63,690 nucleotides of DNA, filler included, from Nemertoderma westbladi (GCA_032718475.1; 3 parts of 3 records of this genome joined end to end with filler, not necessarily neighbours in it), one strand, 5' to 3'. Shown: positions 6,352-46,096, counted from the first letter of the whole stretch. The notes: generated by a model not told the origin, from the sequence alone. Numbers and translations: made by a program.

Positions 6352-6672
6352 GCAGTTGGAAGAGGGACAAACTGTTAAACGCCTTATCGAAAGTTAATCA
6401 AGAAGTCTCCTTACGTATACGCACGCACCCTTACAGTAGCATATCTTGGTTGGAACTACTACAGTAATTACGATTTATAGAAATTAATTAATTTATTTTT
6501 TTTTGGGGGGGGGGGACATCCATGTCGCTATGAATTAGAATGACGACACTATAAATTACAGGACAAATTGTGTGAATATAGTTACATTATAACCTTTTTA
6601 AGAATAGGACAACACTGCAATTTTCCAGAATATCCCCCCCCCCCCCTGTTAGCCGTCCCTCCCCCCCCCCCC

Positions 6673-7182
6673 TGTTAGCGTATTCAATTCCGCTAACACA
6701 AACCCATAAAGTAAGCCGTTAAGCAATATTGGGGGCCACGAGGTTGATTACCCAATCTCGTGCCACCCCAATAAAACGGGAAGGAGAAACACACAATAAG
6801 GGTCAGGGGCCACACCCCTGACCGAGAGAGAATAGCTGGAGTGAAGGGAAACACTCCAAAGGGCGCCAACAGGGATATTAGCCAATGGGAGGGAGGCACC
6901 GGCTAGGTACAGTAACAAGGCCAACCCGTGCAATATAACCAGTTAACGGTAATCAGTTATTTCAGTTATCTCATTGTGTTGGTCGGTTTAGCTAGGATAG
7001 GACCGGAACTTTAATTACCGTTGTGTAACCACTGTGCAGACATCTATATCTATATCTATACTATTATACCGGAGGACTTTATACAGCAATCAGCATTCAT
7101 CCACCTTTTACACACACACGGCGGGAACGCGACGCGTAAATTAAAACCGGATAAACCGGGATCCTTTGTGGATCCCGTCACA
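6673..7182 (+). repeat. 5' LTR (510 bp)
   Basis: tgttagcg...ccgtcaca; matches 20869-21378 with only two differences seen by eye (aaaacggg/aaaatggg; gcattcat/gcaatcat). Confidence 0.95.
6934..6967 (+). promoter_or_regulatory. Putative LTR core promoter (TATAA plus TCAGTT initiator-like motifs)
   Basis: TATAA at 6934; TCAGTT at 6953 and 6962; candidate polyA signal ATTAAA at 7140. Confidence 0.35.
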
Positions 7183-7240
7183 GTAATTAAAGTCAATCGT
7201 CCTTAAGTAATTAAAGTCTATCGTCCTTAAGTAATTAAAG
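7183..7240 (+). promoter_or_regulatory. Atypical primer-binding site: 24-bp repeat x2.4, complementary to the LTR rather than a tRNA 3' end
   Basis: gtaattaaag at 7183, 7207, 7231; gtaattaaagt is the reverse complement of actttaattac at 7008-7018; no TGG start. Confidence 0.65.
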
Positions 7241-7276
7241 CCTAGAACTCCAGCCAGCTACCGATCTAAAGAGGAG

Positions 7277-8950
7277 ATGAGTGACGTTACGCCAACGCGG
7301 ACCCCGGAGGAAGACCCAACGATTCGCGAGGCCGTGACCAGACGGTATAGGCCCACGACGCCGGACCCATCGGTAACGGGTCATCCGGCAGATCAGGATG
7401 AAGGGGGCCGTCTGGAGCCAGAGATCGAGCCGAGAGGAGCGGGAGCCGATTTGAGAGAAGGAGAGGGCGAGAGGAACGGAGAAGAAGACGAGTCGACACG
7501 GAACGAGGGTCGACGTACCGATGTCGCCGGCCAGCCACAGGCCGAGGGCGACGAACGGCCCACCGAAACGGCGACGGTGGGGCCGACGGTACGACGCCGG
7601 ACCCGGAGAGATGGGGGAGATGTCGGTACCGATGTCGCCGGCCAGCTACAGGCCGAGGGCGACGGACGGCCCACCGGAACGGCGACGGTGGGGCCACCGG
7701 TACGACGTCGGACCCGGAGAGACGGAGGAGAGGTCGGCGACGAGGACATCGGGGTTTCTGATCGACTTCGACGGGCCTACAACGCAACCCGGAAACTACT
7801 TAAGGAGGCCAAGGAGGGGGCGAAGATAGATGAGGTAAAGTTAACAACAGGACTAGGTGAGTCGGATAGACATTTTAGTTATCTAATGCGTTTCGGGCAG
7901 AGAGAACTGGCCAAGGAGAGAGCGAGAGGGGTTGCCGAGGAACTGTGTGATTTATGGCGGTGTAGGGGTATGCAACCTAGTGCAGTGTACGTAGGGCCAT
8001 ACTTAGTCGATGCCCAGGGTATAAAATCAGTGGGTTGGAGGAGATCTGAGGAGGGTGAATCCGAGGTTGACCCCGAGGATTCGATCTCGTCAGTCGGAGG
8101 AAGTTCTGGGAAGAGGGGGAAAGTTAGTAGGTCGGGAAGGCGGAGGGAATCCGTCGTAACCGATAAGTCTGCTACATCCTCCATAAAAGAAAGACGGGTG
8201 AGAGAGATAAATGCCACGTACAATCTCGACCTGATAGCGCAAGGTCAGAGAGAGATAAATAGACGGTTAGAGGAGGGGAGAATGCAACTAGAGAAGGAAT
8301 TGGTACTGATTAGAGAAACCGGAGAGAGGGCCGAAAGGGCCGCGAAAAGCCTTAGAGAGTGTGAGGAAATAGAGAGGAGGGAACAAGAGGAGCGTGAGGC
8401 GAGACGGGAAAGTGAACGCAAAGAGCGTGAGGCGGAACGCAAGGAGCGCGAGGCGAGAGAGGAAAATGAGCGCAAGGAACGTGAGGCAAGAGAGGAAAAT
8501 GAGCGCAAGGAACGTGAGGCAAGAGAGGAAAATGAGCGCAAGGAACGTGAGGCGAGAGAGGAAAATGAGCGCAAGGAACGTGAGGCGAGGGAGGAAAGTG
8601 AGCGCAAAGAGCGTGAGGCGAGGCGAAGGGAGGGAGCTAGGAGAGAGGCGGAATTGGCCGAACAGAATGCACGGGAGGTGCGGGAGAGAATGGCAAGAGA
8701 GGTGCGTGAGCGAAAAGAATTGGAAAGACAGCAAGGCGAGCTTATAGAGTACAAAACTAGGCGTACGCGCGAACTGGAACTGGCGCGGGTGGGGGCGTCT
8801 GAGAGCGAGGCTGACTCGAAGATTTTCGAGGAGCCAAGGGCCGTGGATATATTTATTAATACCCCACTTACAGGGACCGCACGACAGACCCGAAACTGGT
8901 GTGACCGTACGGGCGGGGGGGGGGGGGGGGTAATAATAATACTACAGTAG
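7277..8950 (+). CDS. gag: Gag N-terminal extension, segment 1 (111-bp duplication, E/R coiled-coil repeats); frame shifts at G-run ~8916-8930
   Basis: ATG just after PBS; TDVAGQ...RRRTRRDGG x2; EREAREENERK repeats (33 bp); continues in another frame after the G homopolymer. Confidence 0.7.
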   Translation: MSDVTPTRTPEEDPTIREAVTRRYRPTTPDPSVTGHPADQDEGGRLEPEIEPRGAGADLREGEGERNGEEDESTRNEGRRTDVAGQPQAEGDERPTETATVGPTVRRRTRRDGGDVGTDVAGQLQAEGDGRPTGTATVGPPVRRRTRRDGGEVGDEDIGVSDRLRRAYNATRKLLKEAKEGAKIDEVKLTTGLGESDRHFSYLMRFGQRELAKERARGVAEELCDLWRCRGMQPSAVYVGPYLVDAQGIKSVGWRRSEEGESEVDPEDSISSVGGSSGKRGKVSRSGRRRESVVTDKSATSSIKERRVREINATYNLDLIAQGQREINRRLEEGRMQLEKELVLIRETGERAERAAKSLRECEEIERREQEEREARRESERKEREAERKEREAREENERKEREAREENERKEREAREENERKEREAREENERKEREAREESERKEREARRREGARREAELAEQNAREVRERMAREVRERKELERQQGELIEYKTRRTRELELARVGASESEADSKIFEEPRAVDIFINTPLTGTARQTRNWCDRTGGGGGGVIIILQ

Positions 8951-8976
8951 ACGACGTTAATATTAATGGTACCGTA

Positions 8977-9693
8977 TTGGATAATCCTAACCAAACTTAT
9001 ATTGCAGGAAATACTTTGCCTAGTAGTAGCGATTTGAATTTAAACACAAATAATCAAAATAATAATTTCAATTTAAACGTGCAAAATAATCCGAATAATA
9101 ATTTAAATTTAGAAAATAATAATAACTCAAATAATTTAAATAATGATCCAAGCCCGAATTTACAAAATAATTCAAATAGTGTAGTCGCGCAAAATAATCC
9201 AAATGGTTCTATTTCGAACGAACAAAATAATTCCGTTTCTAATATAGGTGCTATTAATGCGAACGCGTCGGACGTGTATAACCCGACAGACGGCGGCCTG
9301 GTAGGCCACGTAGTTAGTAGGCAGGAGGTGGCGGGGTTGAGTCGACCCGACGGCGGCCTGGTAGGCCACGTAGTTAGTAGGCAGGAGGTGGCGGGGTCGA
9401 GTCGAGCCGACGGCGGCCTGGTAGGCCACGTAGTTAGTAGGCAGGGGGTGGCGGGGTTGAGCCAACCCGGAGTAGGCCCGATAGGCCAAGTAGTAGTGGA
9501 GAGAGAGGCAGGGGTAAGCGAACCCAGCCGCAGTAGAAATATTGTGTCGACTGGAGAGGGGTGTAGAAGAGAAGTAAGAGGTAGCGGTGTGATATGTGGC
9601 GAAGGGGGGGGGGGGCTACAGGAGCCCCACAACGAGAAGTTGGTGGCGAGAGGGGGGGGGGGCAGAGAGTGTCCCACAGGCGTCGGCGGATAA
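8977..9693 (+). CDS. gag: Gag segment 2: Asn-rich low-complexity tract plus three 60-bp repeats
   Basis: NLNTNNQNNNFNLN...; DGGLVGHVVSRQ x3; frame open back to the G-run at ~8930; bounded by G-runs at ~9604 and ~9652. Confidence 0.6.
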   Translation: MDNPNQTYIAGNTLPSSSDLNLNTNNQNNNFNLNVQNNPNNNLNLENNNNSNNLNNDPSPNLQNNSNSVVAQNNPNGSISNEQNNSVSNIGAINANASDVYNPTDGGLVGHVVSRQEVAGLSRPDGGLVGHVVSRQEVAGSSRADGGLVGHVVSRQGVAGLSQPGVGPIGQVVVEREAGVSEPSRSRNIVSTGEGCRREVRGSGVICGEGGGGLQEPHNEKLVARGGGGRECPTGVGG

Positions 9694-11899
9694 TGCGCGG
9701 GCCGAATCAGGTAAACCGCAACACCCGGCGACGGAGAGTAATAGGGGGATTGCGAGTATCCCCAGCGGCGTGCGATCGAGCAGAGAGAGGCAGGTTGACG
9801 TCGCGAGAGGGCGGACGAAGCGTCGAGCCCGATCAGAAGAGGGAAGAAGAACAGTGGAGTTTAACCGGGAGGTCGACGAGAGATCTCACGAGCGGGAATA
9901 CTGCACTGAAAGGAGAAGAAGAGAAGACAGCAGAAGAAGTATCGCCGCGAACGACAGGAGAGTGAGGACGGATAGCGAGCCGTCGGTAGTCGAGATGGAA
10001 AGAGAGAGTCGGTGGGGTCGAACTTCGGGAGATTGCCGTCGTCCCGGAGAGACGCGACCTGACGAGACGCGTTACGCGTCGAGAGAGGGGTACACGATGT
10101 ACCGGCACGAAGACGAGAGTAGTAGAGGGGGTCGAAGAGAAACTTTCCGACGGGATATACCTACAGATCGAGAGTACGGTAGCCGCGGGGAGGATTATTC
10201 GAGAAGAATAAACTTCGATCCCGAGCAACACATACAGACTGTAGGACATACTGTAGGCCTTACTGCACATACCATAGGCCATGCTGACAGGAATAATGTA
10301 GGCGATAGGATAGCGCGGACGACGGAATTAAACCCGGAAGTCGCGGAGTACATACCGGCAGGTAGGCCAGAAGCTGATAGGCCTATACCGGTACCAGTAC
10401 AGCAGTATGACTACAGCATGCAAGGACATAACATATACCCAGGGGAGGGGGGAATTATTGCGGATAGATGCATGGGCCCCAATATATTAACATCAACCCC
10501 AGTACCAAACATACCGGTGGGGGGGGGGGGGGGACAGGGTGACATTCCCCCATCGCAATATCAACAATATACCCCGATAGGAGCAAGAACAACGAGACCC
10601 TTGGATGGAAATAGGTCATGTGACACAGAAATATGGAGGGGGCCGCTACCCCCAATGATATACCCAAGCCAAAGAAAGGCAGAAAATAGGACGGGCGGAC
10701 CACACCCAACAGGAGAAACTATACAACATCCATCGAATCCATTGGAAGCGCAGGCGATGGGGATGGCCACGTTGATCGATGCATTAAAAACAAGGATCGA
10801 ATTACCACCCGTGGAACCATTCAAATTCGATGGGAGTAGGCCGGAAGAATATCTCCAGTTTCGGCGTATGTATAGTAACGAAATACTAACAAAGAACTTG
10901 ACGCAGGCGGAGTGCCTAAAGTATCTGCAAGTATACACAGGAGGCCCAGCATACGACATCGTGAGGCAATATCAGGGCATAGAGGGCGGCTTCACGACGG
11001 CATGGCGGGCACTGGACAGGGAATACGGGCACCCGGCCAAGATCATCAGGCAGACCCTGAGAGGCATAACATCGGGTGGCCTACAGGATAATCCCGTTAG
11101 CATTAAGACATTCGCGAACAAGGTCGAGAAGGCGCTAATCGTGTTAAAGACGCTAGACGCGCCATATGAACTCAACGCGTCCAACAACATCACCACGATA
11201 GCGCAGGCACTACCGATGTGGTTGCGCAACAAGTGGAGGAAAATCGCTTTCTCCACTCGAGATAGGAAGGGTGCGGAACCGGGTTTAGAAGAAATGTCAA
11301 GCTTCTTAAACTACGAAGCTGAACTAATAACCGACCCAGTCTATAGCGAAGATAGCCTGGGAAAGGGACCGAAGACGGATTACCATAGACCGAAACCAGA
11401 GCACAATATGTCAAACGCATTACCGAAGCTCAGGCAATCACTGCCATATGCAGCAACGCAGGGGACTGCAAGTCCACAGGTAGCCGAAGGTAAGACCACA
11501 CCATGGAACGGACAGGGGAACAATAACAACACGAATAAATATAACCCCAGTACGTCCAGTAGGCCGAACCCAAACAATAAGAATAGTAGGGACTTTGGTA
11601 CAAACGCAGCTGCGATACGCAATGCACTGTATAAGGAGGGCTACGACCCAAAGAGCAAATGCCAGCTACATACAAATGCGCTTCATCAAACCATGAACTG
11701 CAGGTACTGGCAGGCGCTACCCAGGGAAGATCAGGTAGAATATGCGGCGAGGAATGAGATCTGCTCGCGATGTGTGATGAGTGGACATAGAGCTAGGCAG
11801 TGCAAGGAGACGCCGGTCAAGTTTGGTCAAAGGAGAGGCCAAACGATGGCAACGAGCACAGTAGGGGCGAGAAGAGAGGAACGGTGCTACTTGGAGTAG
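9596..11899 (+). CDS. gag: Gag segment 3: BEL/Pao capsid-like (DUF1759-type) domain and Cys/His knuckles
   Basis: ELPPVEPFKFDG..EYLQF...LKYL...A..L..EYGHP; CQLHTNALHQTMNC; CSRCVMSGHRARQC. Confidence 0.85.
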   Translation: MAKGGGGYRSPTTRSWWREGGGAESVPQASADNARAESGKPQHPATESNRGIASIPSGVRSSRERQVDVARGRTKRRARSEEGRRTVEFNREVDERSHEREYCTERRRREDSRRSIAANDRRVRTDSEPSVVEMERESRWGRTSGDCRRPGETRPDETRYASREGYTMYRHEDESSRGGRRETFRRDIPTDREYGSRGEDYSRRINFDPEQHIQTVGHTVGLTAHTIGHADRNNVGDRIARTTELNPEVAEYIPAGRPEADRPIPVPVQQYDYSMQGHNIYPGEGGIIADRCMGPNILTSTPVPNIPVGGGGGQGDIPPSQYQQYTPIGARTTRPLDGNRSCDTEIWRGPLPPMIYPSQRKAENRTGGPHPTGETIQHPSNPLEAQAMGMATLIDALKTRIELPPVEPFKFDGSRPEEYLQFRRMYSNEILTKNLTQAECLKYLQVYTGGPAYDIVRQYQGIEGGFTTAWRALDREYGHPAKIIRQTLRGITSGGLQDNPVSIKTFANKVEKALIVLKTLDAPYELNASNNITTIAQALPMWLRNKWRKIAFSTRDRKGAEPGLEEMSSFLNYEAELITDPVYSEDSLGKGPKTDYHRPKPEHNMSNALPKLRQSLPYAATQGTASPQVAEGKTTPWNGQGNNNNTNKYNPSTSSRPNPNNKNSRDFGTNAAAIRNALYKEGYDPKSKCQLHTNALHQTMNCRYWQALPREDQVEYAARNEICSRCVMSGHRARQCKETPVKFGQRRGQTMATSTVGARREERCYLE

Positions 11900-12654
11900 T
11901 ACCCGTGCGAGTGATTGGGGAAGGCAATCGATCAATAACAACATTAATGCTGGTTGATAGTGGAGCTGCCTTCACATTAATCGAAGAATGGGTGGCCGAA
12001 GAGATAGGATTGAGAACGAGGCCAAGTAGAATGGCGGTAACAACCATCTCTAGCAAAGATGAGATCCTGGAGATGAGAACAGGACGGTGCGCAATTGCAG
12101 CAGTGGCACCAGGATGCGACTATGGGGCAACCATCGACCCCATCCAAGTGATAGAGTCAATTAATATCAACGCCAGGCGGCCAACCAACATCGAGGTCGA
12201 GCAGTATAAATTCCTGGACGACATTGACTTCTCAATCCCAGACGTGGACGTTAGGAAGGTGTCCATCATAGTAGGTATGGACTGCCCAACGGCCCACGAA
12301 AGAATGCAAACGGTCTTCGGCGAAGACAAGCAGAGTGACCCGGTGGCCATATTAACACCATTCGGGTGGACGCTGAGTGGTCCAATCAAGAGTAAGATAC
12401 CATTTAGGATGTCGGAGACATCAGGATGCATGTTCGCGGGAGCAATGCAGGAAATGGGTGACGAGGGAGCAGAGGAGCAGCTTAAAAGACTGCTCAGACA
12501 GTATTTCGAGGGACTGAAAGAAACTGGGGTCGGGACCTCGGTAGAAGACAAACAGGCTTTAAAGAGCGTGGAGGAATCGATGACTATGCGACGAGGGGTG
12601 GTATACAATAGGAATGGTATGGAAACTACCGAAGATACCGCTACCCGACAATAG
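11800..12654 (+). CDS. pol: Aspartic protease segment of BEL/Pao polyprotein (frameshifted)
   Basis: LLGVVPV...LMLVDSGAAFTLI; IIVGMD; TPFGWTLSGP. Confidence 0.85.
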   Translation: MQGDAGQVWSKERPNDGNEHSRGEKRGTVLLGVVPVRVIGEGNRSITTLMLVDSGAAFTLIEEWVAEEIGLRTRPSRMAVTTISSKDEILEMRTGRCAIAAVAPGCDYGATIDPIQVIESININARRPTNIEVEQYKFLDDIDFSIPDVDVRKVSIIVGMDCPTAHERMQTVFGEDKQSDPVAILTPFGWTLSGPIKSKIPFRMSETSGCMFAGAMQEMGDEGAEEQLKRLLRQYFEGLKETGVGTSVEDKQALKSVEESMTMRRGVVYNRNGMETTEDTATRQ

Positions 12655-14080
12655 GGGGATGGTACTCACGAGACTCCGCAAGCTGAAACAAACACTAAAA
12701 CGGAGCCCCAAGAAGAATGAGTACATCCACAGAACGATTAAGAAGTACGTCGAGAAAGGATGGGCCGTGGAGTTACCGGTCGACGAGCCGAACACGGACA
12801 GGATATATTACCTGCCACTACACGTGGCTTTAGACCCAAAGAAAGGTAAACTACGGATGGTAGTCGACGCATCAGCAAAGACAGACGGAAAATGCTTAAA
12901 CGATTACCTGTTAGAAGGCCCAAACATATACAACTCGGGCATAGAGGTCCTACTTAGATTTAGAAATGGGAAACACGCCTTCACGTGTGACATAGAAGGC
13001 ATGTTCAACCAAGTCCGTGTAATGGAAGAAGATAGCGACAGTCAGCGCTTCTTATGGTATAACGGCGAGGAAGAACCGCCGATAATACCAGCATATAAGA
13101 TGGTAGTACAAAACATGGGGGCCAAGTCGTCTTCATTTACGACGACTATGGCAGTGAGAGACACAGTGAAGGGGAAGGAAGATAGATACAGCAGTAGGGC
13201 CGTCGATATGATTCGACGCGGCTTCTACGTAGACGACGGAATGGAGTCTGGAAATACGGTTAAGGAGATACTGGACACAGGGCGCGAGGTTCGCGACATC
13301 CTAAAGGGATCCGGCTTTAACCTGACCAAATTCCAATCCAGTTCGGAAGAATTTATCAAGGCGATAGAGGACAGGAGACCAGAATCGACCATGGATAATC
13401 CCACAACAGTCAAAGGGCAGGACATGGCGATTAAGAGAACAGAATCTCAACAGAAGGCATTGGGAATCGTGTGGGATAGAGAGACAGACGCACTGAAGTA
13501 TCAGCTGAGCCAGGAGGGCGCAGGCATCCACACGAAGAGGGGCTATGTATCGTATATAGCAAGGATATACGATCCCCTAGGCCTAGCATCCCCATTATTA
13601 GTCACGGGGAAACAGATACTCAAGAGAGTATACAAATTGAAGGATGAGTGGGACGTAGAGGTACCAGAGGAAATCAAGAAACAGTGGAGCAAGTGGACAA
13701 GAGACTTGGAGAAGATGGGAACATACAACATGCCTCGAGTGTATTTCCCGGATGGGAACATGACGAGTCTGGACCTATACATGTTCTCCGATGCGTCGTT
13801 GGAGGCGTACGGAGCGGCACTCTATTTAGTACAACGAGAGGGGGCTCACAAGCCCAGACTGGCCTTTAGCAAAGCTAAGTCAACGCCGTCAGATTCAGCA
13901 TCAGTTCCCAAACTAGAATTGACAGCTGCCAGACTAGGAGTTAGGGCCACGGCCTACCTACTGGATACTATTCCCAACATAGTGGAGACACACTACTGGA
14001 CGGATTCCATGGTAGTGCTTGGTTGGCTACATAACGAAAGGACGAGATACCCTATATTCGTCGCGAATAGGGTGATATAG
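12614..14080 (+). CDS. pol: Reverse transcriptase and RNase H (first copy) segment
   Basis: YYLPLH, KLRMVVDAS, CLND.L..GP, CDIEGMF, QRFLW, FYVDD, LGIVWD, YDPLG, FSDAS..AYGA, WTDS. Confidence 0.92.
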   Translation: MVWKLPKIPLPDNRGMVLTRLRKLKQTLKRSPKKNEYIHRTIKKYVEKGWAVELPVDEPNTDRIYYLPLHVALDPKKGKLRMVVDASAKTDGKCLNDYLLEGPNIYNSGIEVLLRFRNGKHAFTCDIEGMFNQVRVMEEDSDSQRFLWYNGEEEPPIIPAYKMVVQNMGAKSSSFTTTMAVRDTVKGKEDRYSSRAVDMIRRGFYVDDGMESGNTVKEILDTGREVRDILKGSGFNLTKFQSSSEEFIKAIEDRRPESTMDNPTTVKGQDMAIKRTESQQKALGIVWDRETDALKYQLSQEGAGIHTKRGYVSYIARIYDPLGLASPLLVTGKQILKRVYKLKDEWDVEVPEEIKKQWSKWTRDLEKMGTYNMPRVYFPDGNMTSLDLYMFSDASLEAYGAALYLVQREGAHKPRLAFSKAKSTPSDSASVPKLELTAARLGVRATAYLLDTIPNIVETHYWTDSMVVLGWLHNERTRYPIFVANRVI

Positions 14081-14785
14081 AATAGATAAGGGCGACTACA
14101 GAATTGGAAAGGTGGCATTACTGCCCAACGGACGAGAACCCAGCAGACTTGTTATCAAGGGGCATGGCACGCCACACTTTCTTAAAAAAGGAAGGATTGT
14201 GGCAACACGGGCCGCAGTTTCTGAGCGACAAAGAGGCCTGGCCGCCGATGAGAAAGGTGGACCCGGGCTCAGGAGAGGTAGTGTCAGAAGGAGAAGAGGG
14301 AGACTCAGAGGGAGAAGAGATAAGCCCAGACTAGCCTTTAGTAAAGCAAAGTCAACGCCGCCATATTCAGCATCAGTTCCCAAGTTAGAATTGACAGCTG
14401 CGAGACTAGGAGTTAGAGCCACAGCCTACTTAGTGGATACTATTCCCAACATAGTGGAGACACACTACTGGACGGACTCCATGGTAGTGCTTGGTTGGCT
14501 ACATAACGAAAGGACGAGATACCCGATATTCGTCGCAAATAGAGTGGACGAAATAAGGGCGACCACAGAACTGGAAAGGTGGCACTACTGCCCAACAGAC
14601 GAGAACCCAGCGGACTTGCTGTCGAGGGGCGTAGAACGCCACACTTTCCTGAAGAAGGAAGTATTGTGGCAGCATGGGCCACAATTTCTGAGCGATAAGG
14701 AGGCCTGGCCGCCGATGAGAAGGGTGGACCCGGGCTCAGAAGTGGTATCAGAAGGAGAAGAGGGAGATTCAGAGGGAGAAGAGAT
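13850..14785 (+). repeat. Tandem duplication of the RNase H C-terminal region (13850-14321 / 14322-14785)
   Basis: Both copies start aagcccagact and end gagggagaagagat; copy 1 has a frameshift/stop near 14075-14090. Confidence 0.9.
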
Positions 14786-15302
14786 ATACTCCCAGATGGT
14801 GAGGGAGATTAGGGACGTGCAACCAGGACGAGAACTGTGCGATAATCCGACAGATAAACTCCTCAGTTACAGTTCTAGTTGGTATAAGACCAAGAAACTA
14901 GTGGCGTACTGGAGAGCCTTCGGGAATTTCCTTGCGGGAGTTGGTAAGGACAAGAAGACCAGGACAACCATAGATCTGGAAGGAGCGGCCAAGGCAGTGA
15001 TCCGCTATGAACAACGGAAGAACTACGGCGACGAGATGGAACGCGTCGGTAACCAACAGCACCTCCGATGGGACAGCGAGCTGATTACGCTGTCGCCACA
15101 ACTCAATGACGACGGGATTCTAGTAATGAATTCTAGGGTGGGATACAACAACAGCATAGTCGTACCACCGAAACCCATCATCATTCCTACAGGATCGCCG
15201 ATAGTCCATCAGATTATATGGGACTCCCACAAATCCATATTGCATGGGGGCACCAACCGAACCCTCACAGAGATAGGAGGACCTATTGGGTCAAACAATT
15301 GA
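14322..15302 (+). CDS. pol: RNase H (second copy), linker and start of integrase zinc-binding domain
   Basis: Within ORF 14112-15302: KPRLAFSKAK, SVPKLEL, FVANRVDEI, ENPADLLSRG, LWQHGPQFL, H...LHGG. Confidence 0.88.
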   Translation, partial: KPRLAFSKAKSTPPYSASVPKLELTAARLGVRATAYLVDTIPNIVETHYWTDSMVVLGWLHNERTRYPIFVANRVDEIRATTELERWHYCPTDENPADLLSRGVERHTFLKKEVLWQHGPQFLSDKEAWPPMRRVDPGSEVVSEGEEGDSEGEEIYSQMVREIRDVQPGRELCDNPTDKLLSYSSSWYKTKKLVAYWRAFGNFLAGVGKDKKTRTTIDLEGAAKAVIRYEQRKNYGDEMERVGNQQHLRWDSELITLSPQLNDDGILVMNSRVGYNNSIVVPPKPIIIPTGSPIVHQIIWDSHKSILHGGTNRTLTEIGGPIGSNN

Positions 15303-16334
15303 GGAAGAAGGTAAAAGCGGTAGTGGGGCAGTGCCAGACATGCCGACGAGCGAAGAAGGAGCGAGCGGTACAGGAGATGGCGCCACTACCGGCGAGTAGG
15401 GTAAGACAGCACGACCCGCCATTTACGCATTGCGGTGTGGACATGTTCGGGCCGATAAAGATCAAAGTGATGCGACACACGGAGAAACGCTACGGCATTA
15501 TCTTCGTATGCAACAACACACGGGCGGTAGGGATAGAACTCGCCCAAGATGCAACCGCATCAGCATTCATTAATGCCTTAGAAAGGTTTAGGGACCGCAA
15601 AGGTGGGACGATCGCAGTGATATACAGCGACAACGGCACCAACTTTGTGGGCGCAGAGAATGAGATGGCAGAGGCATTGGACATCTTGGAGGGAGAAGAA
15701 GTCAGGGCAGCCATGAGAAGACGACAAGTAAAGTGGGAGAGGAGGACGCCGTATGCACCACATACACTAGGATGCGTCGAGAGACTGGTGGGCAGTTCAA
15801 AGCGTCTCATGACGAAGCTAATGAACACCCACATGGTCACCGAGGACGTCTTGAGAACGGTGCTTGCGAAGTGCGAGGGTATCATTAATAGTAGACCGCT
15901 ATATACGGAGAATGATGACCCTGAGTCATTAGATGTGCTGACGCCCAGCCATTTTCTAATGGAAAGGCCAGCGACCATCGATATGCGGGGTGTAGACCCA
16001 GATGACATACACTCCCGCCAGAGTTGGAAGGTCGCTAAAGCGATAAGCGCAGAATACTGGAGAAGGTGGGTTGAGGAATACCTACCCACGCTTCACAAAA
16101 GAAGCAAGTGGAGGAAGTCGAATAGAGAGAGGAGAGGGAGATCTCGTAATCGTCACGGATGATACTATCATCAACAACCAGTGGCGGTTGGCGAGAGTTG
16201 TAGGCACTTACTCCGATGAGGACGGAAGAGTCCGATCGGTAGAAGTGCGGATAGGGGGCAAGATAGGTGTGAAAGACAGAAAAACCTACAGGAGAGCTGT
16301 AGGGAAATGCTGTCTATTAGAAGGGGCACCTTAG
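15218..16334 (+). CDS. pol: Integrase core and C-terminal (DUF5641-type) region, frameshifted near 16130
   Basis: YWV...CQTC; MAPLP..RV; GVDMFGP; SDNGTNF; VERLV; INSRPL; LTPSHFL; WRRWVEEYL; GDLVIV...WRLARVV..DGRVRSVEV. Confidence 0.92.
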
Positions 16335-16470
16335 ATCGTTTGTTAGGAAGGATTTAGTCGTCCAAGTTTTGGACTGAGGGGGGTTGGGATTGAGGGTGAG
16401 ACGCCCTTCCCACACATAAAATAAAAATAAAATAATATAAAAATTAGAGTTAGTCAGTTAGTTAGGAGTT

Positions 16471-17117
16471 AGTTAGAAGGTACGTAGTACCTAGAGTTAG
16501 TTAGTTAGTCAGTTAGAAGGTACGTAGTACCTAGAGTTAGTTAGTTAGTCAGTTAGAAGGTACGTAGTACCTAGAGTTAGTTAGTTAGTCAGTTAGAAGG
16601 TACGTAGTACCTAGAGTTAGTTAGTTAGTCAGTTAGAAGGTACGTAGTACCTAGAGTTAGTTAGTTAGTCAGTTAGAAGGTACGTAGTACCTAGAGTTAG
16701 TTAGTTAGTCAGTTAGAAGGTACGTAGTACCTAGAGTTAGTTAGTTAGTTAGTTAGAAGGTACGTAGTACCGAGTGTTAGGAGTCAGTTAGTTAGAGGTG
16801 TTAGAGAAGTAGTAAGAGGGTACGTAGTACCGGTGGTTAGTAGAGTTAGAGGTTAGTAAGAGGGTACGTAGTACCGGTTAGTAAGAGTAGAGTTGGAAGT
16901 TAGTAAGAGGGTATGTAGTACCGATAGTTAGTGGAGTAGGTAGAGGGTACGTAGTACCGTTAGTTAGAGAGTAGTAAGAGGGTACGTAGTACCATTAGTG
17001 GAGTTAGAGTAAGAGTTAGAGGGTACGTAGTACCGCTAGTTAGGGAGAGAGAGTAAGAGTTAGAGGGTACGTAGTACCGATAGTTAGTTGGAGGTTAGTA
17101 AGAGGGTACGTAGTACC
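16471..17117 (+). repeat. Array of 16 GGTAC-GTA-GTACC hairpins: 8 in near-perfect 40-bp units, 8 with variable purine-rich spacers
   Basis: Unit agttagaaggtacgtagtacctagagttagttagttagtc from 16471; further cores at ~16819, 16863, 16910, 16946, 16981, 17022, 17066, 17105. Confidence 0.9.
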
Positions 17118-17556
17118 GATTAGTAAGAGATAGAGGTGGAAGGGTATATATAGTATAGATATTAGTCAGTAGTTAGTAGCGAGAGGGGGGCATATGAGTA
17201 CAGTTGGATAGATCGTGTAGGCCACGCGACATATACTGCTGTACTGCACAGGCCCATAGAGTAGGTCAGAATGTGGATTACGAAATAGAATAATCCATAA
17301 ACAGTAAAGTAGTAGAATTAAGTTAAATTAAAAATAAATAGAATAAATAGGGCTAAAAATTACAAATTATGGTAACAGAAGGGAAATTATTCTGGAACAT
17401 AATTAAAGCAACGGACAGAAATTGCAAATAGGGTACATTTGTTAGCTACAAAATTAGGTAATAGAAATTTAGGCTAAAAGGCGTAGTTAGATAGAAAATA
17501 GGCCATTCTCGAACTGTGCAGACCATCAGAAACTTATCACTCATCTGTATTGCACC

Positions 17557-20163
17557 TTGGTAAGGCACCACCTTACAGGTGAGCTAGTGAGAGTGTTCGG
17601 AATGGCGGGAAAACTGATCAGAAAGAGAAAGGTGGAACAAGGAGGAAAGGAGATACTGGTGGATTTCACCAAGAGGCATCCGGAAGAGAAGACGAGAGGA
17701 TACTACGAGAGGTTGGAAAAGGGTCACGCGGCACGAGCGCTGCAGGACCACTTCCGGGAGATGCACGAACAGCGGCTGGTCGGGACCTACGGGACGCCGT
17801 TGCTGGACAACGCGATCTTCCAACACTTCCACTACGTGGTGAAAGGGGACGAGGCGAAGTTCGGGATTCCGAAGTACCTGAGGGAGTCGCCGAAGAAGGA
17901 TTGGAAGAGGTTTATAGAGTCTGTCAACAGGGGAGGATATATGATCCTAGACGACGAGGGAACCGTGGAAGACGAGGAGGGTTCGAGACGAGGATCAGCG
18001 GGGTCGGCCAGGACCATACTCCTACATTTGGCCGCGCCAAATGGGGACATTTTCTTATTCGATCTAGGAACGTATGGGAAAAAGGACGGGCCGAAATTAA
18101 ACCGGTTGCCGAAAGCGGTGCAAGTCCTGGTAAGAGAGAAGTCGACGACGAAGGTGGGATCGGCGATTCGCGAGGATGCGGAGAGAATCATCGGTCCGGA
18201 CACCACCAACCTCCTGGATATGCAGAAGGTCTTCATGGCTATGACGGCACCAGATGGGTTGGGAGTAGTCGGGAACACAGGCCAATGCGGGGCGGTGGCA
18301 ATGGGCCAGCTATTGGGGCTCGTATGCCACAAACCGATGGACTGGGGGAAGTTCAGGGAGGAATACGGAGCAGAACTAGCGAACTCGCTAAAGTGGGGAG
18401 CGAGACCGGGAAGGCAAGAGGTGTATCAATTCCTCAGAGGAGCGATAAAGGTATATCAGAAGCGATATATCCTGCAGGAAGATTGGATGATGATGAGTTT
18501 GCTTAACTTATTCATGACCGTGGTTATCGAGAGGGAACCAGCGGCATTTCTGTTATCGGGATCACCCCTAAGCTACAGGAGAGCCTTTAAGACGGCCTTC
18601 GACGGTCTGGTAGACCACCCGGGGCTGAAGGGCGAGTCGGTGTATTACAACAGCCGACATCTGATAGACAGGGAGATAGATACGCCGTATCAGAGATGGG
18701 AGCAGCTAGAGACAGATAGACGAGAGGCAAAGCGACTGGAAGAAGTCGCTAGACGGGAAAGGATAGAAGCAGAGGAGAGGGAAGAGGAGGCCAGGACGCA
18801 GAGTTACGGCTTCGAGGAACAGGCAGGCTTAGACGAACTTCGTTGGACTTCATCAGGGAGTTCGGGGGAGTCTCTAGGGCGAGAACTGGGATGGACGGTG
18901 GGATCGCCGAAACAGTCAACGTCGGGGTTGCAAGCGATGCCCATACCAGCGGGCGCCGAAGGCGACCAACCGCCAAGGAAGTTAAGGGAGCTAGAGGGAT
19001 GGAGAGCTACGGGCGAGAGCCAAGGCGGGAAGGGACATAGTGGATCCATCGGGATACCGGGGTTGGAGCCACTGCCAGAGGAGGATGAAGACGACGACGA
19101 GGTCGGAGAGATGCCGCCCATCGGGAGGATAGGCCACTCGGACACGGACTGGGTTGGCGGGAGGGTGGTGACGGCCAGTGGGGCGAGGGCCTTCTGGGAT
19201 AGACCCGGCAAGCGGGCCTGGGTGCACAAGGAGCCGGCGATGGATTTCGCGGGGAGCACTATCAGGTTGGGTGAGCAACCGGGGACGGCACCACGGGTAG
19301 TATTCGGGGAGACGATGCCCGAGAGGGGCGAGGAGATCGACGTAGACAGGGACACTAACGTGCAGAAGTTCGCCTACCAGCAACTCCACAGACCGCGGAG
19401 ATCGCTTGGGACGAAAGACGATGTGGGGCGGGAGACATTGGTACTCGGTTGCGATTACTGTGGGAGACAGACCCACCAGGAAAGGAGCTGTTTGTACCGA
19501 TTCCAAAAGGGGACCTTTTGTCTCTACTGCCGCGAGTCGAGCCACAGGATGGGGGCGTGTCCACGGTTGCATAACCGATGTCCGAAGTGTAACTTCCGGG
19601 GACACTACGGACGCCAGTGCGACTGGATGGATGATGAAGAGAAGTTCAGAACCTTCAGGAGTGGGCGACTCGGGGCCATGACGCGGCAACGCATGAAGGC
19701 TCAGGAGTTCAAGTGGGGTTTCTTCCTTATCAATCAGGAGGCTCACTTGGAAATCATAAAGCGGAGGTTACCGTTTACCTATCAAGAGGTAGCAACGGCG
19801 GCGTCGTATGCCGGGGTGATAAATACACAAAGGTATTTGGACAGGTGGACGCCACAGAATCGAGGGGAGTTTAGGGATTTCCTGGCGGAGCACGTGCCGC
19901 GGGCAATGAAGATGATCTTATGGGACGCCACCAGGGGGAGACAACAGGGCCACTCGGAGGGGCCACCCGCGAAGCGATATCGGGAGCTGATAACACCAGC
20001 ACCCAAGGAGCCAACGACCGGGATCAGCAAGGAGGTGGCGGCGAGGGTCCGAAGACAGAAAACGGATCCCAGAGGAGCGGTAGTGACCAGGAAACGACCC
20101 AGGGAGGAGGACGGCAAAGGGAAAGACTTGAGGTGGTTCCCAAAGTCAGGGGGGATAAACTGA
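17557..20163 (+). CDS. Extra ORF of the BEL/Pao element: DEDDy-like 3'-5' exonuclease + acidic linker + 3 CCHC zinc knuckles + basic tail (868 aa)
   Basis: ExoI-like MILDDEG (17941); LLHLA..DIFLFDL; LP.AV..LV....TKVGSAIRED (ExoII-like); LLDMQ; LG..CHK; ExoIII-like YILQED; CDYCGRQTHQERSC, CLYCRESSHRMGAC, CPKCNFRGHYGRQC; uninterrupted; first ATG 17602, frame open from 17491. Confidence 0.8.
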   Translation: MVRHHLTGELVRVFGMAGKLIRKRKVEQGGKEILVDFTKRHPEEKTRGYYERLEKGHAARALQDHFREMHEQRLVGTYGTPLLDNAIFQHFHYVVKGDEAKFGIPKYLRESPKKDWKRFIESVNRGGYMILDDEGTVEDEEGSRRGSAGSARTILLHLAAPNGDIFLFDLGTYGKKDGPKLNRLPKAVQVLVREKSTTKVGSAIREDAERIIGPDTTNLLDMQKVFMAMTAPDGLGVVGNTGQCGAVAMGQLLGLVCHKPMDWGKFREEYGAELANSLKWGARPGRQEVYQFLRGAIKVYQKRYILQEDWMMMSLLNLFMTVVIEREPAAFLLSGSPLSYRRAFKTAFDGLVDHPGLKGESVYYNSRHLIDREIDTPYQRWEQLETDRREAKRLEEVARRERIEAEEREEEARTQSYGFEEQAGLDELRWTSSGSSGESLGRELGWTVGSPKQSTSGLQAMPIPAGAEGDQPPRKLRELEGWRATGESQGGKGHSGSIGIPGLEPLPEEDEDDDEVGEMPPIGRIGHSDTDWVGGRVVTASGARAFWDRPGKRAWVHKEPAMDFAGSTIRLGEQPGTAPRVVFGETMPERGEEIDVDRDTNVQKFAYQQLHRPRRSLGTKDDVGRETLVLGCDYCGRQTHQERSCLYRFQKGTFCLYCRESSHRMGACPRLHNRCPKCNFRGHYGRQCDWMDDEEKFRTFRSGRLGAMTRQRMKAQEFKWGFFLINQEAHLEIIKRRLPFTYQEVATAASYAGVINTQRYLDRWTPQNRGEFRDFLAEHVPRAMKMILWDATRGRQQGHSEGPPAKRYRELITPAPKEPTTGISKEVAARVRRQKTDPRGAVVTRKRPREEDGKGKDLRWFPKSGGIN

Positions 20164-20830
20164 GACTTCGATGTGGTACGCCTGGAAGGCGCCACGTGAG
20201 ACGTGCGAACTATTAAGTACAAATTCAAAATGATGCAAATAATTAAATAAGTGCAATTGTATGTACGTACGTAGTAATCAGTAGTTTAGTTATGAAATAT
20301 ACGTTCGAAGTAAGTACTATAGTCATTCAACCTTTCTCAATTAGCTACTGGGACTGGGGGGCTAACTGACTATGGTACTATGGACGAGACACTAGACGAT
20401 TTCACACTTCTTGAGTGCGACGGCACAGGAGGGGGGGTGAGATTCGTCAGAAGGGATGAGGTAGTCAAAGAGGGGTCGAGTAAAGGTGATAGTGCGGAGT
20501 GCGGAGAGAGTGCGAATGCAATTCAAGTGTGTGGGAGGAATAGGAGGCTGAGTGAGGGACAGGGAAGTCCGAGAGTTAGAGCGATAGTGAGGAGAAGTAG
20601 AGGAGAGTCAGGGTGAGAACAGTGTGGAGTTAAAGTGGCAAAAGTGTTGGGGAAACAAAAGTCGTGTGAGAGGAGCGCACGATCGGCCCGACATGGGACG
20701 CCAGGCGAACCGGGTGGCGATATCATACCCATAGGGAGCGGCCTGGAAAGCCGGCTCCGAGAGAAAATAGTTCCACCCCACACCCGATACTAGATCGGGA
20801 TCCAGCGGAATTGTAGCGCACTTTAGGAGG

Positions 20831-20868
20831 ATGCTATCTTCTCACCGGGAAGATAGCATGGGGGGGAG
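20831..20868 (+). promoter_or_regulatory. Perfect 11-bp hairpin followed by the polypurine tract
   Basis: atgctatcttc-tcaccgg-gaagatagcat (20831-20859), then gggggggag abutting the 3' LTR. Confidence 0.8.
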
Positions 20869-21378
20869 TGTTAGCGTATTCAATTCCGCTAACACAAACC
20901 CATAAAGTAAGCCGTTAAGCAATATTGGGGGCCACGAGGTTGATTACCCAATCTCGTGCCACCCCAATAAAATGGGAAGGAGAAACACACAATAAGGGTC
21001 AGGGGCCACACCCCTGACCGAGAGAGAATAGCTGGAGTGAAGGGAAACACTCCAAAGGGCGCCAACAGGGATATTAGCCAATGGGAGGGAGGCACCGGCT
21101 AGGTACAGTAACAAGGCCAACCCGTGCAATATAACCAGTTAACGGTAATCAGTTATTTCAGTTATCTCATTGTGTTGGTCGGTTTAGCTAGGATAGGACC
21201 GGAACTTTAATTACCGTTGTGTAACCACTGTGCAGACATCTATATCTATATCTATACTATTATACCGGAGGACTTTATACAGCAATCAGCAATCATCCAC
21301 CTTTTACACACACACGGCGGGAACGCGACGCGTAAATTAAAACCGGATAAACCGGGATCCTTTGTGGATCCCGTCACA
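20869..21378 (+). repeat. 3' LTR (510 bp)
   Basis: Near-identical to 6673-7182; followed by poly-C. Confidence 0.95.
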
Positions 21379-24300
21379 CCCCCCCCCCCCCCCCCCCCCC
21401 CCCAGTGCTAAGTGTGTGCCTTGCATGAATATAAATTTAAATATACATTAAACAGTTAAAGAAACATGAAATAATCAAAAATAACCGTATGCAAAACCGT
21501 TTGCAAATTCATCTGTTCATGCAAAACCTGACATAAATCAAAATATGTAATATGTAGCCTGTATAGGTCAATATTTATAATATAACAAATACAGACATAT
21601 TGATTTAAAGCATAAAACTCAGACGGAACAGGTTACTAAGCCAATACAATAGTGTAGGCGTAGGCCTACACGTAGGGTTGATTGTGATAGCCTACTGATA
21701 ACAGGATAATATTAAATGCAAACAAAAGTGTTATGTACAGACCATACTGTAGGGCCTACAGTTGTAGTTTGTTGTATTATACTGTACACCGGTAGGTGTA
21801 CATATAAGCCCGTCTAAATTAAATACTTTAGGCCTATTTAAGACAGCCAACAATAAAGTAAAAACAATTCTCGAAATTAATTACACAGCAACTACATCAA
21901 CAGCACCGGTACGTACCGCCTCACACGTTAAACTTATTATTTCCTACAATAGGTAAGAACTAAGAACTGAACTACAGTATGCTGAATAGGCGTCATTAAA
22001 AAAATAATAAATACTGTATGATAAAAAGTGAAATAAACATAATATAACACAAATAATAACACAAATAATGTCATATCAAAACAACTGGATGCAGCATATA
22101 TAATTTCGATTATTTCGACTTCCATATAATATGTAGGCCTAGTCACCAAGTCATTTTATTTTTGAAATTCACACACTTTGCACCAAATTTGTGCCCTTGC
22201 CAAAATCCAAACCTTTCTTTATCCGCCAGTGCTGCGACTCTTACAGTACACGTTAGTGGGGCATCGCGCAGTAGGTGACGTCCCATGGCTTGAGCAAGTT
22301 CAAACTATTTCGATTTGATCTGGAATCAATAGCTCGAGAGGTATTTGCCAGCAACTTTCAAAAATATTGGAACTTTTTCTATAGTATGTCCATACAATAT
22401 TGGGTTGATAATGGTTATAATCTTCAAAAGTTATTTACGAATGAATTTTTATTTCAGACAGACAGACGGACATGAAATTTTCCCCTACTTACTAATTATA
22501 ATTGTGCGCTAAGGCTCGCCCTGACTGCGTGGCTCGCCCCACAGCAGAACACTATCACTGTAGGCCTATTTGTTTTTATGTGTTTGTATATCATTATCGT
22601 TGTTCCTGTTTATATGGCATTTATTTAACTAGTGTGGCGCCTTTCGATGGCTGATTTAGACCATATTTAATTTATATTTCTTTAAGGGGAAATACGAATA
22701 AAATACACTAAATAAACTAACGATGTTTCATTGAGGATTAAGAAAACAGAAACTTCTGAATATTTGAAGAAAACTAAATTACTGTATTATAGGTAAATTC
22801 TGATTTGTTTGTACAAAATGTATTTAATTCACAGTAGTTTATTTATTTTTTCAACATAATTTAGTTTATTTTGTTACTGTTTTCTTAATCCCCAAACAAC
22901 CTATACCACCTAAACATTATAATTTGGTTTATTTTTTTGTGTATATTATACTGTTCAATTTATTTTAGACATTACTCATTAGGCCCATTCTCACCAAAAT
23001 TGGCCAAACGGGTGTCCGAGGCCATAACTTCTGTTTATGCCGGTTCTAGGAAGTGGTGGATGGCTTTGAAGAAAGCTGCTGCTGCTGAAAAGTAGATTAT
23101 GTACAATTAATTTAAGCTCAAACAGACATCATACCCGCAGCAGAACATAATACGACCACAAAAATGATATTTTCAATGTCCGGGGTCCAATAGGGGTCTA
23201 ATAGAACAAACTGTGATAAAATTCCAACACTATACATACAGTACATGTAGGTCATATCCAGTAAACCCGAAGCATTATTAGAAAGCTGGATAAATGGAGA
23301 TTCTTTTTCAGGAGTATTTGTATGCATACAATGTCGTGTCAAATTCAATTCAAGTGTCGTCCATCTCCATTTAACATCGTATCCGACACTTTTCTTATTT
23401 TTATGTTCGACCCTGTAATGGTGCTGATTTTATTTTAACTTTTTTAAGAGTAATCCTAAAAGTAAATATTCATATAAAATTTTACCAGGATAACCAGACC
23501 ATGTTAAAAAAAAACATGTAATCTGAACATGTAAAACATGTAAATGTAAAATAAACCATGTAATCGTCTTCTAAGTAGACCAAGGTTTATGTACTGTAAC
23601 AATCAATTTGCCCGGTCCCTGTAGTGGTTAGACAGGCCAGCTACTGTATTTGAAAATGATAGAATTACAGATAAGAGTTAAGATAGTGCCAGAGTCGTAT
23701 TTCAACGCGCGTTCTAGAGGTGTATAAAATATGTAGGTTAGCCACACTGAAATTATCTCAGACAAGACTGTAGTCAATCACTGTATCCTCCCTGTACAGT
23801 TGTATTGGCGTCTGCCACTCACTGTGATAATGTATGGATCTGGGATGATTACAGTGCCGGACAGTCCGGACTGTTCATGTTCACGTTCACCAATGTATGT
23901 ACAGTAATATCTATGTTTAATATAATAAATGTATATCTTAATCTTTCACTATTCAAAATATAATTATAGGCGGAGATTATTATATATTTACCTAGAAATG
24001 AATGCATTACAAGCCGGACAAATCATTACAGGGAAGGATCGAGATAATGATCTATTTTGCCTAAATGTTAAGCATTACAGGCCGGAACAATTCATTACAG
24101 GGCAGACTCGTTATTTTAAATAAAAAATAATTTTTTCAACGGCTCAAAAGTGTTTGTCCATGGCAGCATGGTACGGTCCCCATGAAATTCGCCTGACATC
24201 AAGAGCTTTTAGAAAATATGGGTTTACTATATTCTGGTGCAATTTTTTTGAAAATACTTTAATAGCCTTTAATAGAATTCAACTCACTAAATAGGTGCAG

Positions 24301-24614
24301 CAACGCAGCCAATTGAAGTTATGTTGATATAATCCCAGTAGTTGGTTTAGTATGGTTTACTGAGTTGGATTTCGTTGGGTAAGTTTTACTATTAACAAAC
24401 TATGGTGTATGAGCGGGAAATTTGAAAATGTTAAACCCCAATCGCTGGCATCTGTTTTTTGTTAATACTGTAATACAGTACCGGTACCTAATTCTGTAAT
24501 TAGTTTACTAGGCTACCTACTGACCTACCATACATTCTGACATTAGTTTATTAATAGGGCCTAGTTACCCTACCACTACAGAAAGGGGATTCACCCCATA
24601 TCCGCTATCTGGAC

Positions 24615-25466
24615 ATGAATAACCGACCAATCTCTGATAAAAACCTCAGTTTCATGCGGAACATCAACACAAAACTCTTCGAAGAATGGGTTGTGGATGA
24701 ACTACAATCTAAAGGTGTTGATAATATCAATAATCTTTCTATAGGGAAGAGAAGAGATAGTCTGTTGCACTACGCGACCAAGTACAATCGGGTGGATCTG
24801 TGCGAGGTTTTAGTATCGAAGTTTGGCATATCAACAGAAATATCGAATTCCGAGGGTCAACGGCCTATCCATGTTGCTACGAGTTTGGGTTGCGTGGAAT
24901 CGATTTCTTTCCTTTTATCTTCCGGAGCCAACGTTAATTCTCTTAAGCGGGCGGACTGGACTCCGTCAATGTTAGCCAGCTCCAAGTCGAATATTACTAT
25001 TCTTAACTTACTAATACAACACAAAGCGAATTTACACTTGAAAAATAAAGACGGCTGGAATTGTTTCCATTTAGCATGTCGGGAAAGAAGTACAGATGTT
25101 TTAAATTTGTTACTTTCGATTGACCCTACATTGAATAGGACCGTTAGTAGAAACGGACGAACCCCTTTACACACGGCTTGTTTGCACGGCAACATTGAGG
25201 TTGTCCGCTTCCTATTAACCAAATGCCGTGACTCTTCTATCAATGAAGCTGATAGTTGTGGCAGTACCCCGGTAATGGAATGCGTTCGGGGCGACCATGT
25301 TGATGTACTGGAGTTTCTGGTGGGAGAAGGAGTTGATATCGACAAAGTGGATAGGGTGGGAATGAACTGTACCGATGTCGCTGAGTTTTGTAAATCTATA
25401 AAATGCTCTCGTTTCCTCAGCGATTTGCAATGCCCAACTAAATCTTTGGTGAGTTCAGAGTCGTAA
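24615..25466 (+). CDS. ANKRD16: Ankyrin repeat protein, ANKRD16-like, single coding exon (283 aa)
   Basis: LKRADWTP.MLA, LKNKDGWNCFHLACRE, RTPLHTACLHG, DSCGSTP match the ANKRD16 repeat series as I recall it. Confidence 0.8.
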   Translation: MNNRPISDKNLSFMRNINTKLFEEWVVDELQSKGVDNINNLSIGKRRDSLLHYATKYNRVDLCEVLVSKFGISTEISNSEGQRPIHVATSLGCVESISFLLSSGANVNSLKRADWTPSMLASSKSNITILNLLIQHKANLHLKNKDGWNCFHLACRERSTDVLNLLLSIDPTLNRTVSRNGRTPLHTACLHGNIEVVRFLLTKCRDSSINEADSCGSTPVMECVRGDHVDVLEFLVGEGVDIDKVDRVGMNCTDVAEFCKSIKCSRFLSDLQCPTKSLVSSES

Positions 25467-33090: not shown

Positions 33091-33294
33091 GACTGTGTAC
33101 GACCGACCACATGGCAATATGGTTGAACGTACATAAGGTATACCGACCTATCCTTACCTAGACCTACCTTCCTGGAATTCCACTACTCAGGCCAGGGTTG
33201 CAAACACACAGCCCACAGACTACAGCTAATTTGTATACCACATATCATGTGGGGTGTCGAAAATAATTAGAGATTGTGTTGTGGAAGAATTACT

Positions 33295-37470: not shown

Positions 37471-37688
37471 ACCGTTAGTCCTTACCATTTATGAACAACC
37501 ATGAGAATACGGTATTTCATATGGAAGTAGTTAAGAGAGTTCGGTATTTCGGTGATACGTGATTGTTTACATTTATTTTAACATTTTATTTTCCGAATTG
37601 ACATAATAATGAACCTTAGAACAGAATATTACACTATAATATGAATAAACTTTGTCAAACAGTAGCAAAAATATAATATTTGAATTAC

Positions 37689-45996: not shown

Positions 45997-46096
45997 NNNN
46001 NNNNNNNNNNNNNNNNNNNNNNNNNNNNNNNNNNNNNNNNTTAATTAATTAANNNNNNNNNNNNNNNNNNNNNNNNNNNNNNNNNNNNNNNNNNNN
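45997..46096. other. Synthetic assembly gap/linker
   Basis: 44 N + TTAATTAATTAA + 44 N. Confidence 0.95.

Follow-up and report, generated by a model that had tools for sequence, protein, structure and literature searches.

Third open reading frames (ORF3s) encoding DEDDy-type exonucleases have been described in the Juno, Vesta and Athena/Terminon elements of bdelloid rotifers (PMC5408684; PMC5718144; PMC6431247; PMC6338049). According to PMC5408684 their function is untested and there is no sign of within-genome selection, the ORFs sequenced being of the env and GDSL kinds. A cellular protein of related composition is the RNase D of Trypanosoma brucei (TbRND; 7C42 and 7C4C in the PDB), a mitochondrial guide-RNA trimmer, whose DEDDy exonuclease is followed after a 28-aa linker by four CCHC zinc knuckles and whose CCHC domain promotes both the binding of RNA and its degradation by the exonuclease (PMC7797062). 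Here we report the analysis of a 63,690-nt stretch of DNA (the window; all coordinates refer to its whole length, filler included, and aa numbers to an 868-codon frame), which contains a 14.7-kb long terminal repeat (LTR) retrotransposon of the BEL/Pao group with an ORF3 predicted to combine a DEDDy-type 3'-5' exonuclease domain with three CCHC knuckles.

The ORF3 of this element shares with the rotifer ORF3s the location downstream of pol, the non-env character, the DEDDy-like motifs, the lack of a transmembrane (TM) segment and the variant acidic motif. The rotifer precedent had been pointed out in an earlier note, prepared from the sequence of the window, and is borne out by PMC5408684. However, Juno and Vesta are rotifer-specific lineages that carry a dUTPase (PMC5408684), whereas the present element belongs to BEL/Pao; the acidic motif reads D-E-D-E here and DEED in the rotifer ORF3s, the two being likened by description and not by sequence; and the three CCHC knuckles after a 300-aa linker contrast with a Cys-His-Cys motif found in some Vesta ORFs only. 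TbRND and ORF3 are alike in the order of exonuclease and knuckles, but ORF3 is transposon-borne and has three knuckles after ~300 aa, and the two fusions need not share an origin. A predicted exonuclease ORF3 is now placed in the BEL/Pao lineage, together with RNA-binding-type knuckles and clear purifying selection.

No case of a BEL/Pao exonuclease ORF was found in the open-access literature examined, but a precedent may exist, since the nematode BEL element Cer13 may have an exonuclease domain. The main texts of PMC3118150, PMC554778, PMC9094657, PMC3315495 and PMC2774666 do not contain the string 'exonucle', and no BEL/Pao exonuclease is mentioned in the excerpts of PMC3985635, PMC11662393 and PMC7879559.

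Sequence features of ORF3

ORF3 is the stop-free frame reported in the earlier note between the integrase (which ends at ~16334) and the 3' LTR (Table 1). A run of this length has a chance of ~3e-17 at the local base composition, and the other five frames across the same interval contain 15–51 stops. The first codon in frame is TTG and the first ATG lies at 17602, which is the likelier start, because indels in family contigs fall just upstream of it, at 17589–17593, and because a candidate splice acceptor has its end at 17578. The highest 19-residue hydropathy is 1.35, hence no membrane segment is evident, and the domain and sequence searches with ORF3 returned no match to fusion proteins; as the note maintained, the product is not env. 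The exonuclease-like motifs occur in the order in which they had been named (ILDDEG, aa 130–135; LLHLA, 155–159; DIFLFDL, 164–170; KVGSAIRED, 199–207; LLDMQ, 219–223; YILQEDW, 304–310), followed by the three knuckles and the basic motifs resembling nuclear localisation signals (NLS). For aa 600–800 the ESM Atlas returned zinc-knuckle leads alone, all below 0.9.

Prediction of the DEDDy exonuclease domain

The relationship of the N-terminal part of ORF3 to the DEDDy exonucleases was suggested by two largely independent approaches. In the ESM Atlas, 24 of the 30 matches of aa 95–345 fell into the PF01612 set (score 0.94, the family being present on 34–50% of members, with 173–180 of 256 features in common), while the top match was an unnamed cluster (0.95); shuffled proteins reach 0.9 in 4–10% of cases, rates that were measured for whole proteins and not for parts. 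The second approach used a WRN-like profile (A1) of bacterial exonucleases picked by an ExoIII motif (80 loci, of which 79 pass an RNase D profile, 67 are long enough and 66 were aligned), whose best PDB matches are WRN, Mut-7 and EXD2, with WRN the closest. An ordered score over eight blocks of this profile, which tolerates insertions between blocks, reached 52.5 for ORF3, a value attained by none of 1,500 shuffles (mean 10.5, maximum 35.2) and none of 120 pol proteins (maximum 35.8) and lying within the range of 19 true RNase D/NrnC proteins (41.5–63.1). The test aligns D132/E134, D207 and Y304...E308 with the catalytic columns, and a replicate with RNase D/NrnC blocks locates ExoI, ExoII and ExoIII at the same places. 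In the MAFFT alignment D207, Q301 and Y304 fall on invariant columns, and a Phe occupies the column of a near-invariant Trp. The DxE of ExoI, the Asp of ExoII and the Tyr of ExoIII are found in the expected order, while the aspartate of the YxxxD motif is not, in agreement with the variant ExoIII announced in the earlier note.

The AlphaFold model guided by an alignment of DEDDy proteins (predicted local distance difference test, pLDDT, 70.7; predicted template modelling score, pTM, 0.65) contains a strand at aa 128–132 that ends on D132, the homologue rows having no ExoI strand there. Foldseek identified TbRND as the top match of this model (E 2e-5, 18% identity), followed by EXD2 and EXD1; the fold searches returned also Egalitarian, Nibbler, WRN and 3'-5' exonucleases of giant viruses. 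The knuckles of ORF3 and TbRND match weakly (E 0.83). The PF01612 proteins WRN, EXD2, Mut-7-Nibbler and EXD1-Egalitarian share with ORF3 the order and spacing of the ExoI–III blocks and give fold matches to the alignment-guided model (Z ~12), but they are only 9–20% identical to it. ORF3 differs from them also in the terminal Glu and in extra residues inserted upstream of ExoIII and between ExoI and the second strand, and none of them is its orthologue.

Several observations weigh against this assignment. Sequence searches of Pfam, NCBIfam, PHROG and the PDB with ORF3 did not detect the exonuclease; in Pfam, which the earlier note had proposed to consult, a match to DNA_pol_A_exo1 (PF01612) above the cut-off was not reached. 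The A1 profile gave only 4.4 bits in hmmsearch (4 of 1,000 shuffles as high) and a probability of 12% in hhalign, and both its blocks and its WRN-like seed motif were chosen after ORF3 had been inspected. The RNase D/NrnC profile gave -2.2 bits (117 of 1,000 shuffles as high), and the corresponding block score, 22.5, was equalled by 38 of 1,500 shuffles and by 37 of 120 pol decoys, i.e. it is non-significant against real decoys. MAFFT favours a second DxE (aa 139–141) as ExoI, which we consider a less likely register than D132/E134, and the fourth catalytic position is Glu (E308), with D309 adjacent. The structural comparison, likewise suggested in the note, did return DEDDy proteins and the alignment-guided model agrees with a DnaQ-like fold, but this model is circular, because its alignment consisted of such proteins, and the alignment-free prediction has a pLDDT of 36.6, which makes its fold searches meaningless. 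On balance, we regard the DEDDy fold as very probable. Catalytic activity, judged from the motif residues, is only slightly favoured over its absence; we place it lower than the fold because the fourth ligand is Glu.

No relatives of ORF3 were found among proteins of 477–1519 aa, either with the whole protein or with aa 595–800, and none in metagenome and viral contigs, phages or plasmids. The sole match of aa 16–368 among 1.84 billion representatives, an aRib-repeat surface protein, was rejected as spurious. A recent capture of a host EXD, WRN or mut-7 gene is unlikely, because genes so conserved would show among these representatives.

ORF3 as a conserved gene of the repeat family

The distribution of ORF3 among copies of the element was analysed with Logan contigs placed on 17180–21380, from four runs (X1–X4) of three studies, one of them possibly the source of the window. 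The contigs (5,803, 10,084, 6,457 and 151 in X1–X4, respectively) cover all 30 bins of this interval, and in X1–X3 only 0–1% of them continue into unlike sequence; no single one bridges pol and ORF3, the contigs having been placed on this interval, without pol. So many divergent contigs imply that the family is highly repeated, although contig depth itself is not copy number. Internally deleted copies also exist, with contigs joining 18410 to 20339 and 19421 to 20173.

In the exonuclease region (17930–18500), 31 of the best 40 of 73 differences are synonymous, whereas changes of the same kinds would be expected to yield 12.8 (p 5e-9, omega ~0.14). These are the best-supported differences and not the full sample, so that conservation of the catalytic codons is not thereby proven; the listed differences at the codons of D207 and E308 are synonymous. 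Among the segregating differences listed for the region, 23 of 27 are synonymous, in the shifted frames 7 and 4 differences would be synonymous, and no indels at 20% share are listed. In the wider stretch 20 of the 31 in-ORF differences among those listed are synonymous (beside 878 further rows; some are shared with the exonuclease-region set). ORF3 is almost certainly an accessory gene of the family under selection, and the possibility raised in the note that it is a one-off captured host fragment is not borne out.

At sites where the individual copy in the window departs from at least 95% of the X1 contig depth, 8 of the 12 listed differences in the ORF change the residue; thus, its near-private differences look neutral and the copy itself seems to be decaying. 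The earlier note had implied a contrast between an intact ORF3 and a broken gag-pol. The latter is indeed frameshifted, with at least six frame changes (five in pol and one more between gag and protease) and a tandem duplication of ~470 bp (89% identity, 13850–14786) in the RNase H region. However, with 5–7 breaks in 9.1 kb, the probability of no break in 2.6 kb is 0.14–0.24, which is not significant, and the explanation that ORF3 was kept intact by selection in this copy was rejected.

Self-priming anatomy and a possible role of ORF3

There is no TGG-type tRNA primer site directly after the 5' LTR. Instead, the exact reverse complement of the 11 nt found there occurs within the LTR, with its 3' LTR copy at 21204–21214. 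These 11 nt belong to the first copy of a 24-bp unit that is present 2.5 times (7182–7240), and through this tandem unit they recur at 7207 and, incompletely, at 7231. Only 9 of 20,000 Markov-resampled LTRs yield an LTR complement of at least 11 nt, and of 13,658 internal start positions such complements begin only at 7183, 7207 (the tandem copy) and 17150–17152. The pairing probability of the two segments is ~0.6–0.7 in two leader folds. Tf1 and Tj1 also lack a tRNA site, and the sequence that follows their 5' LTR is complementary to part of the LTR; they are of the Ty3/gypsy type and use the 5' end of the mRNA as primer (PMC4600332), whereas here the arrangement belongs to a BEL/Pao element. 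By analogy, the LTR-complementary site is a self-priming anatomy as in Tf1/Tj1. An LTR intron extending the primer was considered and rejected, as no AG acceptor immediately precedes 7008.

The explanation we tentatively prefer, while granting it somewhat less than an even chance, is that ORF3 is a DEDDy exonuclease with knuckles that shortens RNA of the element itself from the 3' end and may also complete the candidate self-primer. That element RNA is the main substrate is close to evenly balanced, whereas primer finishing specifically is rather doubtful. ORF3 would be expressed from a separate mRNA, probably a spliced one. By analogy, TbRND is the best model for the exonuclease-knuckle architecture, and as in that protein the knuckles may bind single-stranded RNA and raise exonuclease activity. 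The LTR segment 7008–7018 would pair with 7183–7193, the RNA would be cut, or would end early, downstream of 7018, and the exonuclease would remove the unpaired tail up to the edge of the duplex, so that a 3'-OH level with the end of the LTR would be available for minus-strand synthesis. In its most specific form, in which a tRNA-independent BEL/Pao lineage encodes a primer-maturation RNase that trims to the 11-bp duplex of LTR and primer site and so creates the 3'-OH, the proposal is unlikely to hold in full. Primer maturation, one of the roles entertained in the earlier note, has gained circumstantial support from the self-priming anatomy, though not beyond the doubtful standing given above. 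Arguments to the contrary are that the Tf1 primer is made by the RNase H of Tf1 itself (PMC4600332), that a TATAA/TCAGT pair (6934/6962) would set the transcript start ~45 nt upstream of the primer segment, in contrast to Tf1, and that ORF3 is probably dispensable for self-priming. The primer anatomy offers a defined substrate, a short RNA duplex, which together with one protein domain makes the role of such nucleases directly testable. If ORF3 is a primer-maturation RNase, it would add a second biochemical mechanism of self-priming, and the exonuclease ORF3s of retroelements would have their first assigned function.

Among the alternatives, a counter-silencing nuclease, likewise entertained in the earlier note, is rather doubtful; it would shorten or degrade those small RNAs of the host, or precursors of Piwi-interacting RNAs (piRNAs), that target the element, and so aid high copy number. 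The closest folds include proteins of small-RNA pathways (EXD1, Nibbler/Mut-7, TbRND), the family is highly repeated, and the basic motifs could take the protein to the nucleus. However, mature piRNAs usually bear a 2'-O-methyl group that impedes trimming of their 3' end, and the nucleocapsid-like knuckles suggest, though not exclusively, binding of genomic RNA. A silencing role similar to that of mut-7 is raised as a possibility in PMC5408684, which reports no clear link to copy number.

ORF3 might also be a catalytically weak RNA-binding adaptor, similar to EXD1 or Egalitarian, that binds, packages or transports the RNA of the element uncut. EXD1 and Egalitarian stand at the top in either fold search (Z 12.6 and 12.2; root mean square deviation 3.5–3.8 over 183–189 residues), the Glu for Asp replacement in ExoIII and the Phe in the Trp column would fit a weakened active site, and the inactive derivatives EXD1 and Maelstrom are noted to have kept the ability to bind RNA (PMC5408684). 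We consider this unlikely: all four metal-ligand positions are acidic, the Tyr is kept, the listed changes at two of the ligand codons are silent, and the rotifer ORF3s with their own variant motif (DEED) were judged possibly active (PMC5408684).

A DNA-directed role similar to that of WRN or Pol I, i.e. trimming or proofreading of cDNA ends or removal of aberrant single-stranded cDNA, agrees with the proximity to WRN of the profile that detects ORF3 and with the VIA search, in which domains of WRN and of apicoplast polymerase tie for first place (Z 12.3–12.7). We consider it very unlikely, as RNA is the usual ligand of CCHC knuckles and the only protein of known structure that combines an exonuclease with CCHC knuckles acts as an RNase (PMC7797062). 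Least probable of all is a coincidental motif series in a conserved protein of another fold, which would account for the silence of the standard databases and the weak RNase D-profile tests but not for the agreement of the ESM Atlas with the ordered-block test or for catalytic positions that are all in order.

The host element and its surroundings

Belpaoviridae are defined by LTRs of 0.2–1.2 kb around gag-pol with the order protease, reverse transcriptase, RNase H, integrase (PMC8742986), and the element fits both in LTR size and in domain order. All Pao-type domains were found, namely DUF1759, the Peptidase_A17 RNase H (E 2e-41) with DAS, YVDD and DUF5641. The best 120 of 294 relatives of the reverse transcriptase-RNase H region (E <=1e-40) all carry PF05380 at only 32–38% identity, and the named ones come from various animals; hence, as judged from pol, the element is a deep-branching BEL/Pao of an animal. 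It departs from the family in length (14.7 kb compared with 4.2–10 kb) and in having an ORF3 without TM segments in place of an env-like third gene; we treat it as an atypical member, because pol places it in this lineage. The primer site of Belpaoviridae is described as 18 nt matching tRNA-Arg or tRNA-Gly (PMC8742986), and their gag as carrying a triple Cys-His box (PMC554778), of which two boxes are readable here in one frame, followed by a frame change.

The LTRs are 99.6% identical; thus, the element is young. It is embedded in a C run (6634–6672, 21379–21403), with which a CCCCC target duplication is compatible, though not diagnostic. An unexplained fragment resembling the LTR start, TGTTAGC, lies between two C runs immediately upstream of the 5' LTR.

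Table 1. Coordinates of the features of the BEL/Pao element and its ORF3 in the window
Feature	Position	Strand	Remarks
5' LTR	6673..7182	+	510 bp, TG...CA ends, 2 mismatches to 3' LTR
Candidate self-primer	7008..7018	+	11 nt in LTR, exact reverse complement of 7183–7193
Primer-binding position	7183..7193	+	directly after 5' LTR; not TGG tRNA-type
gag region	7235..11899	+	several frames; low-complexity N-terminal part, DUF1759, Cys-His boxes
pol	11797..16334	+	protease (DSG), reverse transcriptase (YVDD), Pao RNase H (Peptidase_A17), integrase, DUF5641
Tandem repeats between pol and ORF3	16456..17187	+	40- and ~44-bp units
ORF3	17557..20163	+	868 codons and TGA; 853 aa from ATG 17602
Candidate splice acceptor	17560..17578	+	pyrimidine-rich, CAG/G, 23 nt before ATG; predicted from sequence
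Predicted DEDDy 3'-5' exonuclease domain	17857..18555	+	~aa 101–333
ExoI D132/E134	17950–17958	+	predicted catalytic positions
ExoII D207	18175–18177	+	predicted catalytic position
ExoIII Y304...E308	18466–18480	+	Glu in place of last catalytic Asp
Three CX2CX4HX4C zinc knuckles	19450..19620	+	aa 632–645, 655–668, 675–688
Basic C-terminal motifs KRYR, RRQK, RKR	19972..20097	+	possible NLS
Polypurine tract	20860..20868	+	preceded by short hairpin, 20831–20859
3' LTR	20869..21378	+	510 bp; C runs on both flanks

The N-terminal region of gag (7235–9693) is unusually long, with charged 33-bp repeats, an Asn-rich stretch and 60-bp repeats, and its part 7235–8947 has no Pfam match. The frame changes in the N-terminal part of gag coincide with long G runs, and these upstream changes may be assembly errors. 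The repeat units between pol and ORF3 share the core GGTACGTAGTACC and possibly constitute a regulatory spacer.

Outside the element, an inverted repeat pair a short way upstream of it (3548–3724 and 6191–6351; 103 nt, 98%) possibly represents the ends of a DNA transposon. A single-exon host gene with ankyrin repeats (24558–25466, + strand) and two non-LTR-type reverse transcriptase-like fragments (46045–47366 and 55291–57476, both + strand) were read by eye, the gene from its translation, and a large array of a 38-bp minisatellite occupies 33159–37500.

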